The notes under the pieces are model-generated. The model was given only the letters and a program-made list of their open reading frames with translations, was not told the origin of the DNA and did not search any database. The position numbers and the translations under genes were made by a program. 64,000 nt of DNA from Methanotrichaceae archaeon (lineage in GTDB: Archaea; Halobacteriota; Methanosarcinia; Methanotrichales; Methanotrichaceae), in the NCBI GenBank assembly GCA_963803145.1, contig CAWDLW010000015.1, positions 192,001-256,000 of the forward strand. The letters run 5' to 3'. This document shows, one piece after another, positions 25,108 through 54,816 of this stretch. Positions within the stretch are counted from its first letter, which is position 1, and every line of letters begins with the position of its first letter.

Positions 25108-25181
25108 GGGCCGGTAGCTTAGTCAGGTAGAGCGAAAGGCTCTTAACCTTTAGGTCGGGGGTTCAAATCCCTCTCGGCCCG
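25108..25181 (+). tRNA. tRNA-Lys(CTT)
   Basis: GGGCCGG acceptor stem, AAAGG-CT CTT AA-CCTTT anticodon arm, GGTTCAAATCC T arm. Confidence 0.96.
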
Positions 25182-25190
25182 CTTTAATTT

Positions 25191-25395
25191 GGGGCTGTGG
25201 CCTAGCCAGGTAGGGCGACGGGCTCCAGCGGTATATTTGATGATGAGCAACGGGTCTACTGAGGCCTCTCGACGGGGAGGCTGTTGATGATCCGTTGGAG
25301 CACTGAAATGGGTTGTTACCAGCCATCGTTTTCCGGCTGAACACTTCAGTATCGGAGAGACCCGTCGATCGTGCGTTCGAATCGCACCAGCCCCA
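25191..25395 (+). tRNA. tRNA-Trp(CCA) with a 131-nt intron (25229-25359)
   Basis: GGGGCTG/CAGCCCC acceptor stem, ACGGG/CCCGT anticodon stem, BHB (CTCC/GGAG helix, AGC and AGA bulges) at 37/38. Confidence 0.95.
25229..25359 (+). ncRNA. tRNA-Trp intron-encoded box C/D guide RNA (predicted Cm34, Cm39)
   Basis: C box ATGATGA 25240, D' CTGA 25259, C' TTGATGA 25284, D CTGA 25303; guides ACGGGTCT and CCGTTGGAGC pair with the pre-tRNA. Confidence 0.9.
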
Positions 25396-25765: not shown

Positions 25766-26036
25766 ATGAAGCAAAAAAATCGGCCTGTAACTAGTTATAA
25801 ACTACTTGTAAGCTCCTGCTGAATTATCCCGCGCATCAGCAGCACTATAATTACTATTTTTCATGTAACGCCTCAGAACTCATAGGGCTCATCATAGTTT
25901 CAGAGAGATTTCATCATCATCGGCGTTATGATAAGTTGATAAAGGAATTCTAATGGATCTTCTTAGGATCTTTGAGAGACAGTTAGTAATCGAATGAATA
26001 GCCCCATACAAACAACGTCGAGGCTATTTAGGAGAC

Positions 26037-46245: not shown

Positions 46246-47286
46246 CTATTGTTTTCTTCTTAGCCACAGCGTGTAAGGGTAAAAAATGACAGAAAGAACT
46301 TTATCCAGGATTCCTCTATTAGATGTATCACATTTTTCGCTATGCTCCTTTCCCCCAGGCGCTTCGCTTACCAACGATGGCGGCATTCGAGTCCCATCCG
46401 GCGCCTTACGCTCAAACGTGACAAACATAGCATCTTTTTTGGGAACCATTCTAGAGCCCATAGTGTTTGCATAAACCCTTGTAAATTCTGCACCTAATAA
46501 CAGTATATTTGCAGAGTAGAAGATCCAGAGCAGCAGGACCATAAGCGATCCAGCGACGCCATAGACGGACGCTATGGAGCTATAGCCTAAATAAAGACTC
46601 ACAAGATACTTGCCTATAGTAAAGAGTATCGATGTTGCGATTGCTCCGACCCAGCTATCCCTCCAAGAAATATCAATATCAGGGACAATCTTGAAGATCA
46701 CAGCGAAGATAAATGTTATCGCCAGAAATGAGACAATGAAGTTAGTAGTTTGCAGTTCTGTGTAACTTCTCATTATGCTTTCAAAGTGTGCATTCAAGAT
46801 AGCCAGACCTGTGCTTATAATCAACGAAATCAGCAGAAGAAAACCCAGCCCAAGAACCAGCAGGAATGAAAAAATACGATCGCGGACGATGCCTATGATG
46901 CCTCGACCCGACCTTGGCTTAACATCCCAGATAGTATTTAACGCATCCTGGAGTTGGCCGAAGATTCCAGTTGCCCCGACGATTAGAGCTGCAATACCAA
47001 TAATTGTTGCAAATGGACCTCCTCCTGATTTGCCTGCATTCTCTATTATGACCTGTATTGCCTGAGCGCTCTGCTCGCCGACAAGACCGCGGATCTGAGC
47101 GACTATATGCCCTTTGGCGGCCTCCTGGCCAAAGGCTATGCCCGCTATGCCTATTACTATCACAAGCAGTGGGGCAAGCGAGAATATGGTATAGTAGGCT
47201 AAGGCCGCAGCGAGCCTTAAGGCATTGTCTTCATTCCAATTTGAGAGCGTATCCCTAAACATTCTCAAGATCAGCTTCAGATCCAC
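46246..47286 (-). CDS. YihY/virulence factor BrkB-family membrane protein
   Basis: AAALAYYTIFSLAPL, LQDALNTIW, YGVAGSLMVLLLWIFYS..ILLLGAEF. Confidence 0.92.
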   Translation of the reverse strand: MDLKLILRMFRDTLSNWNEDNALRLAAALAYYTIFSLAPLLVIVIGIAGIAFGQEAAKGHIVAQIRGLVGEQSAQAIQVIIENAGKSGGGPFATIIGIAALIVGATGIFGQLQDALNTIWDVKPRSGRGIIGIVRDRIFSFLLVLGLGFLLLISLIISTGLAILNAHFESIMRSYTELQTTNFIVSFLAITFIFAVIFKIVPDIDISWRDSWVGAIATSILFTIGKYLVSLYLGYSSIASVYGVAGSLMVLLLWIFYSANILLLGAEFTRVYANTMGSRMVPKKDAMFVTFERKAPDGTRMPPSLVSEAPGGKEHSEKCDTSNRGILDKVLSVIFYPYTLWLRRKQ

Positions 47287-47538
47287 GGTTAAACTCCTCT
47301 GTTAAATGCAGCAGGAAATGTTAGGACATGTTATATAATTTGCCGGGCCACTATAGGCCTCCCAGCTAGACCTCTTAAATAGAGAGGAATTTATGCTCAT
47401 ATGTCCAAATGGACCAAATCTCTATGGAAGGCTTCCAAGCCCGTAGTTTAAAATCAGAAGGGGAAAAGGATATATGGCGGCCCACTGCAGAGGATTTGCA
47501 AAGCAGGGCATATTGTCCAGGAATCGCCTTGCGGAGAC

Positions 47539-48807
47539 ATGCTTATAATGTCAGACCAATGTACGTGTCATAGTCACAATACACATCCATATGAGAGAAC
47601 TCAAGAAAACGATTTCTCTTTCAGCATCATCTGTGAAGAGGATGGAACTCGAGCTAGATCAGGAATAATAAAAACCAGGCACGGTAGCATAGAGACGCCT
47701 TATTTCGTGCCTGTCGCAACCCTGGCCTCAGTTCGCTCCCTTGGATCGGATGATTTGGATGCTCTCGGTGTGCAATGCACACTTGCAAATACATATCATC
47801 TTCACTTGAAGCCGGGAGATGAGGTTGTAAGAAGATTGGGCGGCTTACACAGGTTTATGGGGTTTGGCAGGCCCATCTTTTCAGATTCGGGCGGATTTCA
47901 AGCATTTTCTCTAGGATACGGAAGGGAACATAATTTAAATAAAATTGGAGGCGTATTTCCCAGAGGAAGAAACGCCGATGTGCCTAAGGAGAACCTGACA
48001 AAGATCACAGACGAAGGCATCTCTTTCAAATCCCTTTATGATGGAGCATGGCATTTCTTGAATGCGAAGAGATCCATGGAAATTCAGTCTAACTTAGGCT
48101 CGGATATAATAATGGCCTTCGATGAGTGTACTTCCCCGCTCTCGGACTATAGTTATACTAAAAAGGCAATGGAGCGAACCCATGAGTGGGCAAGATCCTC
48201 TCTGGAATACCACGATAATAGTCAGGCAATTTACGGCATAATTCAGGGCGGCTGGTTCGAGGATTTGAGGGCTGAGAGCACCGAGTTCATCAAGTCGCTT
48301 CCCTTCGACGGCATCGCCATCGGCGGCTCCTTAGGCAACTGCAAGAAGGATATGCATCAGGTTCTGGATTGGGTGATTCCAAAGCTTGACACCAGGCCAA
48401 GACATCTTCTTGGAATAGGCGAGATCGACGATGTCTTCGAGTGCATAGAGCGCGGGATAGATACCTTTGACTGTGTCTCGCCCACAAGGATTGCCAGGAG
48501 AGGAAGCCTGTATATATCCCCAGAATCAGGCGGATGCATTGAGAATAAGTTCAGGATAGATATAAAGGCCAATAGGCATAAAGAGGACTTGAAGCCCATA
48601 GATCCTGCGTGCAGATGTCCCACATGTCTCAGATACTCCAGAGCATATCTGAGGCACCTTTATGCTGCCAAAGAGCTGACTTACTTCCGATTGGCATCCA
48701 TTCATAATCTCTATTTCATGCTCAGGCTTATGGAGATGATAAGGGAGAGCATAAAGCAAGGCACATTTACTGAATTGAAGGATAAATGGCTGAATATAAA
48801 TGTCTGA
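47539..48807 (+). CDS. tgt: Bacterial-type tRNA-guanine(34) transglycosylase
   Basis: LANTYHLHLKPG, DSGGFQ, SDIIMAFDEC, GIIQGG, RHLLGIG, GIDTFDCV.PTRIARRG, CRCPTC..YSRAYLRHL, IHNL. Confidence 0.95.
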   Translation: MLIMSDQCTCHSHNTHPYERTQENDFSFSIICEEDGTRARSGIIKTRHGSIETPYFVPVATLASVRSLGSDDLDALGVQCTLANTYHLHLKPGDEVVRRLGGLHRFMGFGRPIFSDSGGFQAFSLGYGREHNLNKIGGVFPRGRNADVPKENLTKITDEGISFKSLYDGAWHFLNAKRSMEIQSNLGSDIIMAFDECTSPLSDYSYTKKAMERTHEWARSSLEYHDNSQAIYGIIQGGWFEDLRAESTEFIKSLPFDGIAIGGSLGNCKKDMHQVLDWVIPKLDTRPRHLLGIGEIDDVFECIERGIDTFDCVSPTRIARRGSLYISPESGGCIENKFRIDIKANRHKEDLKPIDPACRCPTCLRYSRAYLRHLYAAKELTYFRLASIHNLYFMLRLMEMIRESIKQGTFTELKDKWLNINV

Positions 48808-49609
48808 AAGGTTGAATCGTGAGGATAGTTCAGTTATGGTTGATGAGCCCAAATATAGCAGAGATGAGGCCTACAGCTTAAATGATAAGGTACACAAATT
48901 TCTATACAAATTTGAGCTGGATAAAACTCAAGTTACAATAATCATCTGCGGTCTCTACATATTCTTCTCCTTTGCGGGAAATATTGCAGCAACAAAGGTC
49001 ACATACTTCGGAAATTTTGTAATGGATGCGGGGTTCATTTACTCTCTCACATTCACCTGGAGGGATCTTATACATAAACAGCTGGGAAAGAAGGCTGCTG
49101 TTACTACTATATGGATGAGCGCTATAATAAATCTTATTGCAGCCCTTTACTTTCAGCTTGTGGTTCTCATGCCTGCGCAGTCCGGATGGGCCGATAAGGG
49201 AGGGCAAGCTGCATGGCAATTTCTCTTTGGCATAATTGATACCTCAGGCGGTGTATGGTGGCAGGCCATATTTTCACTCCAGCTTAGAATAGTCATAGGT
49301 TCGATAATAACTATGGTGATTGCAGAGCTTGTGGATACCCAGGTATATCATCAGTGGACCTCGGGAATAGGAAAGGATAAACCCGAGTGGACAAGGGTCT
49401 TCGTCTCCAATGCGTTCTCAATTCCAGTCGATAGCATTCTCTTCCCTTTGATAGCCTTCACAGGGATTGTCGGCGTAGACGCGATGATGCAGATGTTCGG
49501 CACAAATATAATCGTCAAGGTGATAACTACACTTCTGGCCTTCTGGACGATATACCTAGTGCCAGAGAAGCCTATCTATAGGGATGTGGCGAAATCAGTA
49601 GAGAGTTGA
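48800..49609 (+). CDS. YhhQ/VUT-family queuosine-precursor transporter
   Basis: NIAATK, FTWRDLIH..LGK, RIVIGS...AELVD, R...SN..S.PVDSILF..IAF; 8-nt overlap with tgt. Confidence 0.88.
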   Translation: MSERLNREDSSVMVDEPKYSRDEAYSLNDKVHKFLYKFELDKTQVTIIICGLYIFFSFAGNIAATKVTYFGNFVMDAGFIYSLTFTWRDLIHKQLGKKAAVTTIWMSAIINLIAALYFQLVVLMPAQSGWADKGGQAAWQFLFGIIDTSGGVWWQAIFSLQLRIVIGSIITMVIAELVDTQVYHQWTSGIGKDKPEWTRVFVSNAFSIPVDSILFPLIAFTGIVGVDAMMQMFGTNIIVKVITTLLAFWTIYLVPEKPIYRDVAKSVES

Positions 49610-49739
49610 TGCCAAGGATATGAATATACTTAGGATGCAAGGACTTAATATAGCCAGATATGGCTCGAATAGCCATATCTGGCGTCTTTTCTATTTTGAT
49701 CTAAAACTTTATATTAATAATTCATCGATCACTTTCGTC

Positions 49740-50606
49740 TTAGATGAAGTTCTCCAGAACCCGCCTCAGTCCCGCCTCCCTGTCCACTTTATGCGGCTTG
49801 TATCCGGGAAACATCTCATCGAACCTGGGCATATCCTTTTCATAGAACTTTCCAATGGCCACAGGCGCATCAGAGTTGTAATCCCACGACCTTATTATCT
49901 TGAGTGCTTCATCGAAGTTGCTGGGATCATTGTCCTTAACCTCGTAAATGCGCTTGTTATAGAAGTCATAAAGGTTGTTGTAGGTCACACAAACCTGAAG
50001 AACATCCACGAAGGAGAATCCTTTATGCATTATAGCATCCTTGAGCAATCTCTTGAAATGCTCCATCCTGCCAGGATAAGCCCTAGCTATGAAAGATGCA
50101 CCGCTTGCAAGCATTATCTCCAGAGGATTCATAGGATACTCCTCAGTTCCCTTCGGAGTCGATTTTCCTCTAAAGCCCATAGGAGATGTTGGCGTGTACT
50201 GGCCTGTAGTCAGGCCGTAAACGCGGTTATCATGTAGAACCAATGTCAGATCGATGTTCCTCTTTGCGGCAAATACGAGATGATCCAGGCCCTCTGCCAG
50301 CGAATCGCCATCACCTGAGAAGCATATCACCTTAAGCTCAGGATTCGCTAGCTTAATGGCTGTTGCTGCAGGCAGCGTTCTTCCATGTATCGAATAAAAG
50401 CTGTTTACGTTCAGATAATCTGCAATCTTCGCATGCTGGCCGATTCCAGATACTATGACAACATTCTCCAGTGGAAAGCCTTCATCGCTCATCTCCTTGA
50501 GCAGAGATTTCATTGCATTCAGGATGCCGAAGTTCGCACAGCCGGGGCACCACTGGTTCTTGGCATAGGTTGTTATATCTTTAGGATTCATATCTTTAGA
50601 ACTCAT
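49740..50606 (-). CDS. korB: 2-oxoacid:ferredoxin oxidoreductase beta subunit
   Basis: WCPGC, SGIG, HGR, GDGD, DNRVYGLTTGQ. Confidence 0.9.
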   Translation of the reverse strand: MSSKDMNPKDITTYAKNQWCPGCANFGILNAMKSLLKEMSDEGFPLENVVIVSGIGQHAKIADYLNVNSFYSIHGRTLPAATAIKLANPELKVICFSGDGDSLAEGLDHLVFAAKRNIDLTLVLHDNRVYGLTTGQYTPTSPMGFRGKSTPKGTEEYPMNPLEIMLASGASFIARAYPGRMEHFKRLLKDAIMHKGFSFVDVLQVCVTYNNLYDFYNKRIYEVKDNDPSNFDEALKIIRSWDYNSDAPVAIGKFYEKDMPRFDEMFPGYKPHKVDREAGLRRVLENFI

Positions 50607-52264
50607 GCTGCCACCTTCCCAAGCTCTGCCTCAAGGTCGTCCAATGAGAAAGGCCTGCCGTCATACTTCAGTATTTTATCATCAGTACGGATTCCATATT
50701 GCATGAGGAGCCTTGCAAGCTGACCTGTTGAGTTGCATTCTACGCATATCGTCCTCTCGACAGACCTCAATGCCTCTTTCAGCTTTTTCAAGGGAAATGG
50801 AGATAACACCAATACTTGGATTGCCTTCATGCCGAACTTCTCGGCAGCCTCCATGCAGACTCCTTTGTTTGAGCCCCAGCATAATAATGCCGTCTTTCCC
50901 TCGCCGTAAACCTTTACAGTCTCATAGTTATCCAAATCCTTTGACATGGATATTCCCTTGAGCCTCCGCTTATCTACGAGGTCGCTCGTGATTTTGGGGT
51001 CCTCAGTTGTTATGCCATACTCATCATGGACATAGCTATCTATCTTTATCACCTGATCCTTTGCAGGCGGGAACGCAAGCGGCGAGACGCCCGTATCTGT
51101 ATATTTATATCTATCATACTTGCCCTCGCCATTCCATAGTAGAGGAGCCTCCTCATCCGGTTCGCCCGCCGCTCCGATATCGAAGCTATAAAGCCCTTCG
51201 GATACGATTTTATCAGAGAGTATGAATGCAGGAACCTGGTACTTCCATGCCATGTTCATTGCAACACCCGACCAATAGTATGCATCATCTGCATCCCCAG
51301 GTGAGACAACGAACCGCGGAAACTCGCCCTGGCCGGCGTTGAGTATGAAGTGCAGATCGCTCTGAGCCGTATATGTCGGCAGACCTGTAGATGGACCCGT
51401 TCTTTGTCCCATCATTATTACGACAGGCAGCTCTGCCTGCCCTGCCAGGCTCAGGCCCTCGGTCATTAGACAGAAGCCTCCGCCGGAAGTTCCCACTGCA
51501 GTCTTGACTCCAGCATATGCAAATCCTAAGGCCATGAGCATAACAGCGATCTCGCTTTCAGGATGGATAACCTTGAGACCGAACTCTTCTGCGAGAGCTG
51601 CCATAAACTCGAGAAGGCTTGAAGATGGTGTCATGGGGTATGCTACATATGCATTCAATCCCCCCTTGATAAGTCCGAGTCCAATCGCATGGTTTCCTGT
51701 GAGAACAGGCAAACTTGGCTGGTCCAGCTTTTTTATCTCGACATGTTTCTGGGCAACATCGTATCCTCTTCGGGCTATCCTCAAGTTCTCTTCCAGCTTC
51801 TTGGGTATATGCTTTTTAAGAACCAGCTCAAGTACTCTCCAATCGATTCCCAGAGATTTGCAGAGCCCGCCTATAATGCAGGTGTTGCGCATGACTGAAA
51901 GGCCGCCCTCTTCCTTCAATATTTTCTCAATAGGTAGCGGAAGCATTGTCTGCTTCAGGCCTTCAGGCTTCACTTTCCCTTGATCATATATGATGAGGGC
52001 ATCATCCTTGAGCCTGAATTTATGAATGTTAATCGTATCTTGATTCAAGGCAAGAATTGCATCAACACGATCTTTGTGCACCCCGATCTTATGGCTTGAA
52101 GCTCTTACGATAACGAAATTATGCCCGCCCCTGACAAGGGAAGGGTAGTCATAATACATGTAGACCCTGTATCCAAGCTGGTTGAAAAGACGGCCGATGG
52201 TCAGTCCAGCCTCATTTATGCCGTCTCCGGCTATGCCTCCTACAAGAACAGAAAAATCATTCAT
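50603..52264 (-). CDS. korA: 2-oxoacid:ferredoxin oxidoreductase alpha (gamma-alpha) subunit
   Basis: YPSLVRGGHN, AYPMTPSS, ESEIA, TSGGGF, RTGPSTGLPT. Confidence 0.9.
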   Translation of the reverse strand: MNDFSVLVGGIAGDGINEAGLTIGRLFNQLGYRVYMYYDYPSLVRGGHNFVIVRASSHKIGVHKDRVDAILALNQDTINIHKFRLKDDALIIYDQGKVKPEGLKQTMLPLPIEKILKEEGGLSVMRNTCIIGGLCKSLGIDWRVLELVLKKHIPKKLEENLRIARRGYDVAQKHVEIKKLDQPSLPVLTGNHAIGLGLIKGGLNAYVAYPMTPSSSLLEFMAALAEEFGLKVIHPESEIAVMLMALGFAYAGVKTAVGTSGGGFCLMTEGLSLAGQAELPVVIMMGQRTGPSTGLPTYTAQSDLHFILNAGQGEFPRFVVSPGDADDAYYWSGVAMNMAWKYQVPAFILSDKIVSEGLYSFDIGAAGEPDEEAPLLWNGEGKYDRYKYTDTGVSPLAFPPAKDQVIKIDSYVHDEYGITTEDPKITSDLVDKRRLKGISMSKDLDNYETVKVYGEGKTALLCWGSNKGVCMEAAEKFGMKAIQVLVLSPFPLKKLKEALRSVERTICVECNSTGQLARLLMQYGIRTDDKILKYDGRPFSLDDLEAELGKVAA

Positions 52265-52815: not shown

Positions 52816-52968
52816 CCGGTTCACTGGATTCTAGAGTTTTCAGGAAAACTCTTTTTCCTTGACAGCCCGATATTCAATATTTACCACCGCCAATCCTCAC
52901 ATGTTGTGTGGAAATACCCCTCTTTCCTTAGCGATCATCATTTATACCCCTTGAATAGTCTAACTGAC

Positions 52969-54816
52969 ATGCATAACGGGTTGAGCCCCAGATCGGGCAA
53001 ATCCATTGTTATAATTCTAGCGATCATAACAATGATACTTTCTGGTTTCGCAGACGCTACATTCTCCGTCAAACCAGGAAATAGCATTCAGTCAGCCATA
53101 AGCGCTGCCAATCCAGGCCAAATCATTGAGGTGCAAAACGGCACCTTCCATGAGCGGATCAATATTACCAAACCTATCGCCCTTAAAGGGGTGGGTAATC
53201 CAATTATTGATGCAGGCGGCATTGGAAGCGCTATAACCATCTCGGCAAGTGGTTCAACTCTACTCGGATTTACAGTTACAGGATCCGGCATTGGTGGCGG
53301 AGATGCCGGCATAAAGGTGCTCTCCAGCGATAATATAATCAAAGACAACACAGTCATCAAAAATAATAACTACGGAATGATCCTATATCATAATGACAAA
53401 AATACTATACTTTCGAATGCAATGGTAGGAAACAAAAAAGGCGGAATTTTGCTGGTTCATTCCAACAACAATCTGATCTGGGACAACAATGTCAGCATGA
53501 ACTGGAACGGCATCACTATTGAAACCTCTACCGGCAATACCATCAAGTCCAACAATCTGACCAGGAACAAGTTGGGCATAAATGTTTCGAGCAATAACAT
53601 AAGCGAGAGTATCACCCCACATGGCAAGGGTGTATCAATTAAATACAGCGCCATCAGCAAACTGACGACCTACAATATCGACCAGAACAGCACAGGCTCA
53701 TCACCCAACGTCAACATCATCTATCAGAACAATCTTCAGAACAACGGCCAGAGTGCCTTCGACGATGGCAACAACCAGTGGGATAACGGCAAGGCAGGCA
53801 ACCATTATAGCAACTATGATGCCTATGAACAAGGCTGCACTGATCGCAACAGAAATGGCATCTGTGATAATAGTTATAGCATTCCGGGAGGACACAACGT
53901 AGATTCACTGCCGAAAGCCTCTCCTGACGCCATACTCAGCTACAAGTCAAAGGGATTGATGGGCTCAGAGCTGAAGATAGACCATAAAACCTTCCTGCCC
54001 GGCGCGGATATCAATGTAATATATCAGGCTCCAAGAAACTTCTCGGGCTGGGTGGGTGTTATAAAGGCGGATCAGCCCAGAGGAAGCGCCAGCCAGGAAA
54101 TGGCGCTGACCTATCAGAAGTTTGTAGGCTCATCAGGCATATTGAATCTACGGGCTCCAGCCGACAGCGGCGCATACGATCTTCGATTGTACGATGCTAC
54201 CAGCGGCGAGGAGATGGCCTCTTTGAATTTCATGGTCAAAATCCCAACGATTTCCGCCACTCCTAGCCCGGTGTATACTTGTGAGCAGATTACAGTCGCT
54301 TACGCAGGAGCCCCAGGTTTTGATAATGACTGGATAGCCATGTACAGATCGGGATCACCTGATACCAGTTACATTAATCGCCAGTACCTGGATGGAAAAG
54401 AGAACGGCACATTGATCCTTGACTCCCCCGATCCGGGCAGTTATGACTTCAGGATGTTCGAGAATAATAGTTACACCCGACTGGCCGCCAGCAACAGTGT
54501 GACAGTCAGAGCCTATAATGGCACCAAGGTCGAGGCCACACCAACTCATGTTGCGCCCGGAGGTACAGTCACTGTAACCTATTGGGGTGCACCGGCATCA
54601 GGATCAGGTGTCATTGGAATGTATGGAATGACTAGGCCTGACAAGTTCCCCATTGAAACAAGATCCCTTGGCAGCAGGAGCTGCGGAAGAATGACTTGGA
54701 AGCTTCCTTATGACGCAGGGCAATACGACTTCAGAATGTTCTACTCCGCGATCACCGATGTCGGACAAGGAGCTTACCAGATTTTGGGCCAGAGCGATGT
54801 GGTAACAGTAGGCTAG
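52969..54816 (+). CDS. Secreted NosD/parallel beta-helix protein with three C-terminal Ig-like repeats
   Basis: IQSAISAANPG, N-rich beta-helix, WDNGKAGNHYS, DxNxNGICD; repeats ending GxYDFRMF. Confidence 0.85.
   Translation: MHNGLSPRSGKSIVIILAIITMILSGFADATFSVKPGNSIQSAISAANPGQIIEVQNGTFHERINITKPIALKGVGNPIIDAGGIGSAITISASGSTLLGFTVTGSGIGGGDAGIKVLSSDNIIKDNTVIKNNNYGMILYHNDKNTILSNAMVGNKKGGILLVHSNNNLIWDNNVSMNWNGITIETSTGNTIKSNNLTRNKLGINVSSNNISESITPHGKGVSIKYSAISKLTTYNIDQNSTGSSPNVNIIYQNNLQNNGQSAFDDGNNQWDNGKAGNHYSNYDAYEQGCTDRNRNGICDNSYSIPGGHNVDSLPKASPDAILSYKSKGLMGSELKIDHKTFLPGADINVIYQAPRNFSGWVGVIKADQPRGSASQEMALTYQKFVGSSGILNLRAPADSGAYDLRLYDATSGEEMASLNFMVKIPTISATPSPVYTCEQITVAYAGAPGFDNDWIAMYRSGSPDTSYINRQYLDGKENGTLILDSPDPGSYDFRMFENNSYTRLAASNSVTVRAYNGTKVEATPTHVAPGGTVTVTYWGAPASGSGVIGMYGMTRPDKFPIETRSLGSRSCGRMTWKLPYDAGQYDFRMFYSAITDVGQGAYQILGQSDVVTVG

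Follow-up and report, generated by a model that had tools for sequence, protein, structure and literature searches.

Does a methanogenic archaeon fill the wobble position of its tRNAs with a 7-deazaguanine base scavenged from bacteria? The question is raised by two adjoining genes in a 64,000-nucleotide stretch of a Methanotrichaceae genome (the window; G000:C15:192001-256000), which encode a bacterial-type tRNA-guanine transglycosylase (TGT) and a membrane transporter of the YhhQ family, also called QPTR (queuosine precursor transporter). In standard teaching, the tRNA modification queuosine (Q) belongs to bacteria and eukaryotes, and archaeosine to archaea. A first-pass annotation had read the pair as a horizontally acquired module for the import and use of queuine (q), the base of Q, or of a precursor, in a domain considered Q-less. 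The pair is a conserved module of the family, and its TGT belongs to an old, mostly archaeal clade with a pocket loop of its own; queuine salvage is the first, tentative candidate for its function.

Gene identities and the host genome

Both genes lie on the plus strand. The TGT gene (47539..48807; 422 aa), identified as an open reading frame (ORF) by profile scores and by a structure model, and the YhhQ gene (48800..49609; 269 aa), identified as an ORF by profile scores, overlap by 8 nt, ATGTCTGA (48800..48807, plus strand), as first annotated; the overlap is a translationally coupled operon junction. The TGT scores 468.2 bits with TIGR00430, the model of TGTs acting on G34 (cut-off 306.75), and 423.4 bits with the Pfam TGT family PF01702, as opposed to 117.3 bits with TIGR00432, the archaeosine TGT (arcTGT) model (cut-off 350); it is a bacterial-type G34 enzyme, as had been proposed, and not an archaeosine TGT. 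The DpdA model scores 30 bits (cut-off 200). The transporter exceeds the thresholds of both PF02592 (Vut_1; 106.5 bits vs. 27.2) and TIGR00697 (64.1 bits vs. 50.95). The two identities are not chance matches.

The TGT translation holds the bacterial motifs NTYHL, DSGGFQ, AFDEC and TFDCVSPTRIARRG. Residues D116, D195, C197 and D311 correspond to D102, D156, C158 and the nucleophile D280 of the Zymomonas mobilis enzyme, and the Zn site C358/C360/C363/H389 to its Cys318/Cys320/Cys323/His349. The Pfam domain spans residues 38-419 of 422, and the protein therefore lacks a PUA domain or any other C-terminal extension. The motifs, the Zn site, the Cys158 equivalent and the missing PUA domain had all been noticed at first pass, as had the unusual pocket loop. 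This loop reads GGSLGN (residues 262-267), and not GGL[AS]VGE, the canonical form, in which Glu235 serves as a peptide switch for 7-aminomethyl-7-deazaguanine (preQ1).

Compared by sequence with proteins of solved structure, the TGT scores highest against that of Z. mobilis (304 bits), with 232 bits for human QTRT1 and 61 bits for Pyrococcus horikoshii arcTGT. An AlphaFold2 model computed from a 30-row alignment (pLDDT, the predicted local confidence score, 85.4) superposes on Z. mobilis TGT in Foldseek with a target-normalised TM score of 0.93 and a root-mean-square deviation of about 1.6 A, and features the (beta/alpha)8 barrel and the Zn subdomain. Confidence is low at the N-terminus (residues 1-23) and at roughly residues 128-149 of an insert following DSGGFQ (about 126-151, pLDDT <50). 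The protein thus resembles the canonical bacterial TGTs of Escherichia coli and Z. mobilis (40-45% identity) in fold, catalytic Asp, Zn site, Cys158 and substrates of the U33-G34-U35 type, and differs from them in the GGSLGN loop, in the insert of about 26 aa, in having no QueA partner, and in a gene linkage with a transporter in place of queA. With arcTGT (TgtA) it shares the superfamily and the base-exchange chemistry; its bacterial signatures, the lack of C-terminal domains and the low TIGR00432 score set it apart. The ratio of nonsynonymous to synonymous substitution rates (dN/dS) relative to the orthologue in G002, a genome of the same genus, is 0.14 (0.20-0.21 for two neighbouring genes), and the TGT is under purifying selection.

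The host genome (G000) measures 4.13 Mb in 51 contigs, and is 99.3% complete with 6.8% contamination. A chimeric contig was considered and ruled out: mcrA (958 bits) resides about 60 kb away on the window's own contig, the neighbouring genes of the TGT show synteny with G002, and the G+C content is even across the window. The McrA product is 96% identical to a record named 'Methanotrichaceae archaeon' and 84-88% to metagenome-assembled genomes (MAGs) of Methanothrix/Methanosaeta.

A separate arcTGT was found in the host, as anticipated, at G000:C8:351320-352600 (604 bits). A second gene of the TGT fold, located 0.5 kb downstream (G000:C8:353136-353882, 116 bits with the arcTGT model, within a 585-aa frame), probably encodes the archaeosine synthase ArcS. 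The host also carries queC (231 bits). Profile searches of the genome found no queA, QueH or QueF, and for queG just a weak match of 71 bits (cut-off 200); the set of QueF, QueA and QueG or QueH, which makes up the de novo queuosine pathway via preQ1, is missing from the host, in agreement with the expectation formulated at first pass. The tRNAs that a G34 enzyme could use are all there. tRNA-Asp(GUC), tRNA-Asn(GUU), tRNA-His(GUG) and tRNA-Tyr(GUA) are each encoded once, all with U33-G34-U35, those for Asn and Tyr with introns. Allowing introns, ARAGORN reported 48 tRNAs in the genome, tRNA-SeC included; with long introns allowed it also made 'tRNA-Pyl' and 'tRNA-Arg' calls, apparently spurious, whose introns would measure 802-1909 nt.

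Conservation of the pair and extent of the GGSLG clade

The size of the TGT population was monitored by profile searches in 105 Methanotrichaceae genomes. The bacterial-type TGT scores above the cut-off in 74 genomes, belonging to 11 of 16 genera, and is matched at E<=1e-60 in 76. It is missing from genus g8 (0/16), and resides in most genomes of g2 (55/59) and in all those of g6 (7/7). YhhQ (PF02592) was detected in 94 genomes, queC in 101, queA in none, QueH in one (on a 1.7-kb contig) and QueF in two, G098 and G017. In G098 the QueF homologue (38.8 bits) is directly upstream of a second YhhQ gene of the type called A below (172.8 bits; G098:C187:20304-21169, locus L209), a pair which could be a separate acquisition or contamination.

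Two kinds of YhhQ can be distinguished in the family by their PF02592 scores, type A (>145 bits) and type B (95-117 bits), the latter including the window's copy. The two are just 22-30% identical, and E. coli YhhQ gave no tblastn match at E<=1e-3 to the type-B loci tested. A search for type-B homologues listed relatives which all share at least 64% identity, one of them from a record labelled 'Methanophagales ANME-1', which is a lead only; a contig search with a single type-B protein returned one close relative, and a search of protein clusters generic VUT clusters only. Type B is located directly downstream of the TGT, on the same strand, in 68 of the 76 TGT genomes, which bears out the link between the two genes drawn from the window alone. 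In two further genomes (genus g4) the downstream gene is of type A, and in six no YhhQ was found within 2.5 kb, the TGT lying at or near a contig end in three of these; one of the six is G002. None of the 29 genomes lacking the TGT has a type-B gene. Type A was found in 37 genomes, 18 with and 19 without the TGT, and both types reside together in 13. The TGT-YhhQ pair is therefore a conserved module of the family, not a private acquisition.

TGT genes were translated from 110 loci, 34 closely related to the window's copy and 76 more distant, from bacteria. The 34 rows comprise the window TGT, 30 other Methanotrichaceae sequences, and one sequence from each of three MAGs, labelled Woesearchaeota, Saccharibacteria and Pacearchaeota. 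All 34 feature the pocket loop GGSLG[N/K/D/E][C/S/T/N]K, and none has lost D102, D156, C158, D280 or any of the four Zn ligands. At the Glu235 site, 31 of the 34 carry Asn, whereas Glu is kept in 71 of the 76 bacterial rows, in loops of the GGL[SA]VGE kind. The clade loop is one residue shorter; counted back from the next helix, 'LAV' becomes 'SL', and two alignments of the loop are possible, with 'SL' in place of either 'LA' or 'AV'. The insert of about 26 aa after DSGGFQ is typical of the clade, and is longer in genus g2. Quick trees computed with IQ-TREE under LG+G4, of 112 and 122 rows, recover the GGSLG clade as monophyletic, with a support of 100 in the Shimodaira-Hasegawa-like approximate likelihood ratio test.

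The range of the clade was traced in a phylum-level sample of 401 genomes, with the window TGT as query, which gave 63 matches at E<=1e-50. The enzyme was found in 10 of 12 genomes of family f1 (G000 being counted with it), full-length matches sharing at least 69% identity, in 9 of 54 genomes of f17 (70-75%), in 37 of 64 of f10 (54-60%), and in one genome of f36 (57%). The matches in f11 (4/4 genomes) and f4 (1/1) are of the canonical type, at about 40% identity. In f17, all seven loci fetched have a GGSLGN loop and, directly downstream, a type-B YhhQ (70-78% identical). All nine loci from f10 and f36 have a GGSLGK loop, and in four of them a type-A-like YhhQ lies beside the TGT. Named relatives of one f10 enzyme come from Archaeoglobus, Archaeoglobaceae and Archaeoglobi MAGs (66-94% identity) and from Woesearchaeota and Nanoarchaeia MAGs (54-66%), and a record titled 'Archaeoglobaceae archaeon' has the same sequence as one of the f10 rows. 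Among 28 named GGSLG loci, two of which are contigs already in the set, YhhQ was found within 3 kb in nine, and queA beside none. The rows which adjoin queA lack the GGSLG loop (L285, L290, L294, L297, and the fragment L305); the loop is of the Glu type in L285 and L297, and the variant GGETIGYN, from the candidate phyla radiation (CPR), in L290 and L294.

In a tree of 84 rows the GGSLG clade (support 99) splits into two branches. One (support 99) is formed by Archaeoglobaceae and some DPANN; in the other (support 98) the basal positions are taken by DPANN and by the Saccharibacteria row, with Methanotrichaceae above; f17 is nested inside Methanotrichaceae, with weak support. The clade is thus old and mostly archaeal, including Methanotrichaceae, f17, Archaeoglobaceae and DPANN. 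This phylogeny, together with the 74 family genomes that carry the gene, contradicts the notion of a private or recent acquisition from bacteria; the module had been regarded as horizontally acquired. Three small genomes with a clade TGT from outside the phylum-level sample (G301-G303; two labelled DPANN and one Saccharibacteria, a bacterium) have neither queC over the cut-off (0/3) nor queA (0/3).

Other odd loops were encountered in TGTs from CPR and other bacteria (L275-L278, L288, L291, L295, L098), where the motifs GGSFSK, GGDLGD, GGGPEG and GGALDK occur; the variant found in L290 and L294 can be written GGE[ST][IV]GYN. The diversity of TGT loops exceeds the two classes usually discussed.

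A natural control is offered by the sister families. In a class-level sample of 301 genomes, bacterial-type TGTs were found in other families of Methanosarcinia, at 31/32 genomes in f4, 11/12 in f5, 1/2 in f6, 1/1 in f7 and 1/134 in f3. Ten loci from f4-f7 were fetched (L219-L228, from G134, G280, G139, G199, G218, G220, G164, G222, G239 and G184). Their TGTs are 34-39% identical to the window TGT, have the canonical loop GGLS[IV]GEP, and in 8 of 10 loci directly follow a queA gene, the product of which shares 41-45% identity with E. coli QueA. A separate clade (support 100) unites nine of the ten rows. QueH was found in all five genomes tested, QueF in none. To judge from gene content, these archaea could finish Q on the tRNA yet apparently lack the means to convert their own 7-cyano-7-deazaguanine (preQ0) into preQ1, and would need salvaged preQ1 or another reductase. 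Their queA-tgt-QueH set is probably what Castelle 2021 reported for 'Methanosarcinales' and DPANN, as far as the cited portions of that article go (PMC8204110). It has in common with the window a bacterial-type TGT, a host of the same class and the lack of QueF, and differs in its separate lineage, in its loop, in the queA gene upstream and in the presence of QueH.

Could the GGSLG enzymes act elsewhere, on another tRNA position, on another RNA, or on DNA as DpdA does, or be decaying relics? A shift in specificity could be indicated by the insert peculiar to the clade and by its altered loop. The low DpdA score, the retention of the tRNA-binding motif PTRxARxG and of all catalytic residues, and the fact that position 15 is covered by a true arcTGT speak against these readings, as do the low dN/dS and the maintenance of the gene in 74 of the 105 family genomes and in other families. 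An alternative target or loss of function is very unlikely.

Candidate bases for position 34

In the scheme that we favour, the YhhQ/QPTR-type permease would import a 7-deazaguanine base made by neighbouring bacteria, and the QueA-independent TGT would exchange G34 for the imported base in the four GUN tRNAs (Asp, Asn, His and Tyr), with no further maturation of the base on the tRNA. What we infer here is the transport step, the choice of position 34 and which base is inserted. Queuine would be the leading candidate, and would yield true Q34, as in Chlamydia and eukaryotes. A two-gene salvage operon with queuine as its first candidate, taken jointly with salvage in general, is a reading that falls a little short of even confidence. 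The association of the TGT with a QPTR importer, and never with the enzymes which turn preQ1-tRNA into Q-tRNA, is the pattern expected if the final base were imported and inserted directly.

The closest parallel is found in Chlamydia trachomatis. In the passages cited here (PMC11570991, PMC11130926), bacteria with 'tgt plus QPTR only' are interpreted as salvaging queuine, and the QPTR of C. trachomatis is stated to carry q and not preQ0 or preQ1, that of E. coli preQ0 and preQ1 and not q. By the description given in the same passages, the C. trachomatis system is made up, like that of the window, by a bacterial-type TGT with a non-canonical loop and a QPTR importer, in the absence of QueA, QueG/H and QueF, and the predicted logic, a finished base imported and inserted directly at G34, would be the same. 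The two systems are likened by description, and the window differs in that the archaeal host also makes preQ0 and archaeosine, and in that Cys158 is kept. The pocket motif of q-salvaging TGTs is given as GG[LS][AS]G (PMC11570991, in the portion cited), as compared to a window loop, GGSLG[N/K], which is shorter and devoid of Glu235. The eukaryotic enzyme QTRT1, which like the predicted archaeal system inserts queuine directly, keeps Glu235 and forms a heterodimer with QTRT2, features not seen in the window TGT.

Several observations weigh against queuine. GGSLG fits the published motif at four of five positions, and the loop being one residue shorter, the equivalence of the motif positions is unsure. 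Cys158 is invariant in the 34 clade rows; in E. coli this residue favours preQ1 over queuine, the human enzyme having Val (PMC3074131, in the excerpt cited). Eukaryotic q enzymes are likewise reported to carry Val at position 158, and QTRT1 Gly at 233, neither of which is found in the window TGT; the Z. mobilis enzyme loses its affinity for preQ1 on the C158V change, and V233G creates space for queuine (PMC3660597, in the sections cited). The clade loop is not of the space-opening V233G type, and the helix register would put Leu at the Val233 site. The G002 genome, of the same genus as the host, retains the TGT without an adjacent YhhQ. No Q-nucleoside hydrolase was found, in a Qng1 search whose control also matched nowhere. 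To our knowledge, the classic surveys by liquid chromatography-mass spectrometry reported no Q in archaeal tRNA. Since Cys158 is kept and the loop is not of the V233G type, queuine is a leading candidate and not an established substrate. The queuine import and use put forward at first pass survives to this extent, and the insertion of preQ0, mentioned there as an alternative, must be regarded as a serious rival.

The host makes its own preQ0, as do most members of the family (queC in 101 of 105 genomes). Strictly speaking, preQ0 would therefore require no importer, and the cell has a substrate of its own at hand. The TGT might thus insert preQ0 at G34, drawn from the archaeosine pathway or imported by YhhQ, which would create a 7-cyano-7-deazaguanosine wobble base, or a derivative of it, in place of Q. 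The absence of QueF from the host is consistent with this possibility, as are a PDB entry in which a bacterial TGT binds preQ0 (1p0b, by its title) and the ability of E. coli YhhQ to carry preQ0 (PMC5372724). The replacement of Glu235 by Asn in 31 of the 34 rows points the same way, as Glu235 holds the Leu231/Ala232 peptide switch by which the preQ1 aminomethyl group is bound (PMC3660597, in the part of the text cited). A Glu235Gln exchange is said, in the title of the study describing it, to 'swap substrate selectivity' of Z. mobilis TGT, reportedly toward preQ0. Against preQ0 stands the lack of queC in G301-G303; endogenous preQ0 supply is therefore not a general rule, and some members of the clade, at least, have to salvage the base. 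The occurrence of both YhhQ types in 13 family genomes suggests different cargoes, and a preQ0-inserting TGT would compete with arcTGT for one preQ0 pool. We know of no role for preQ0 at position 34. On the whole, preQ0 insertion is unlikely.

The invariance of Cys158, a residue tuned to preQ1 (PMC3074131, in the excerpt cited), raises a further possibility, namely that the module salvages preQ1, which would be left unmatured at position 34, or that it uses both preQ1 and queuine. A precedent exists in Bartonella henselae, which has tgt and QPTR without QueA/G/H and uses preQ1 and q; its loop, however, is the canonical GGLAVG (PMC11570991, in the portion cited), whereas the clade has lost one loop residue and Glu235. 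Moreover, all canonical-loop lineages encountered in the present survey keep QueA, and even the CPR variant GGETIGYN adjoins queA. The use of preQ1 appears distinctly improbable, and imported queuine is retained as first candidate.

Flanking features, earlier records and implications

Upstream of the operon, a 252-bp spacer (47287..47538, strand not assigned; delimited by the ORF map and inspected by an Rfam scan) separates the TGT from a divergent BrkB/YihY-like gene (46246-47286, minus strand), and presumably holds the operon promoter. The Rfam scan of positions 46900-49900 matched no family at E<=1, riboswitches included, and in three further loci (L027, L029 and L030) no riboswitch or other Rfam family was matched at gathering score upstream of the operon. 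Downstream, between the YhhQ stop and a convergent gene for the beta subunit of a 2-oxoacid:ferredoxin oxidoreductase, sequence inspection and folding identified an inverted repeat with perfect 13-bp arms (49653-49665 / 49671-49683) and, after it, a T-rich run (49653..49699, plus strand as a whole). The free energy of the fold is -24.2 kcal/mol (z -5.3), and none of 200 shuffles folded equally well; hairpin and T-run likely mark the operon end.

The convergent oxidoreductase has two subunits (49740-52264, minus strand), and the segment beyond includes an ORF of 636 aa (52906-54816). In G002 the whole segment formed by YhhQ, the oxidoreductase and the 636-aa ORF is missing at the syntenic site (L211), where the TGT is followed by about 1 kb devoid of long ORFs. 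The comparison of the window with G002 marks an indel hotspot adjoining the TGT module. Elsewhere in the window, a tRNA-Lys(CUU) gene (25108-25182) is followed by a long, intron-bearing tRNA match (25191-25395), whose span includes a match to the C/D-box RNA sR3 (25236-25308); a second such RNA, sR41, was found at 25871-25924 on the minus strand. The tRNA match with sR3 inside resembles the intron-encoded guide RNA arrangement of archaeal tRNA-Trp.

Parts of this picture are in print or in public records. Bacterial queuosine genes are already on record for archaea, which the first-pass annotation took to be considered Q-less: Castelle 2021 describes such genes, a legend mentions 'some Euryarchaeota (Methanosarcinales)', and QueA, QueH and TGT are named, in the portions of the article cited (PMC8204110). 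Zallot 2017 found YhhQ homologues in archaea and proposed preQ0 salvage (PMC5372724). Records titled 'tRNA guanosine(34) transglycosylase Tgt [Methanothrix sp.]' and 'queuosine precursor transporter' are publicly available. The genes being widespread, already annotated and partly in print, the finding is less surprising than was first held. A full-text literature search returned no paper joining queuosine with Methanothrix or queuine with Methanosaeta; besides Castelle 2021, a 2008 study on Haloferax was the sole paper combining queuosine and Methanosarcinales. As far as searched, three elements are not in print: the recognition of a separate archaeal TGT clade that is QueA-less, linked to QPTR and marked by a distinct pocket loop; the differences between this clade and the queA-tgt-QueH lineage; and the salvage reading for Methanotrichaceae and Archaeoglobaceae.

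In its broadest form the hypothesis would be that a mainly archaeal, QueA-less GGSLG clade puts a 7-deazaguanine at the GUN wobble position in free-living Methanotrichaceae, Archaeoglobaceae and f17, as well as in DPANN, the product being either scavenged queuosine, or preQ0 or an undescribed derivative; stated so widely, it is possible, though rather doubtful. The clade is in any case a natural experiment on base choice by TGTs, as it combines a shortened loop and the loss of Glu235 with a conserved Cys158. Should the base be preQ0 or a derivative, the new pocket would be a third way of selecting the base, in addition to those of bacteria and eukaryotes; should it be scavenged queuosine, the rule of 'no Q in Archaea' would be overturned. 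By record titles the clade reaches Methanothrix and Archaeoglobus, both of which include cultured strains, and because the predictions can be tested in such strains they should interest specialists of tRNA modification and of methanogens. If the hypothesis is true, acetoclastic methanogens of global importance, Archaeoglobaceae and DPANN would depend on a bacterial micronutrient for decoding NAU and NAC codons, which would add a new cross-feeding link to methanogenic consortia.

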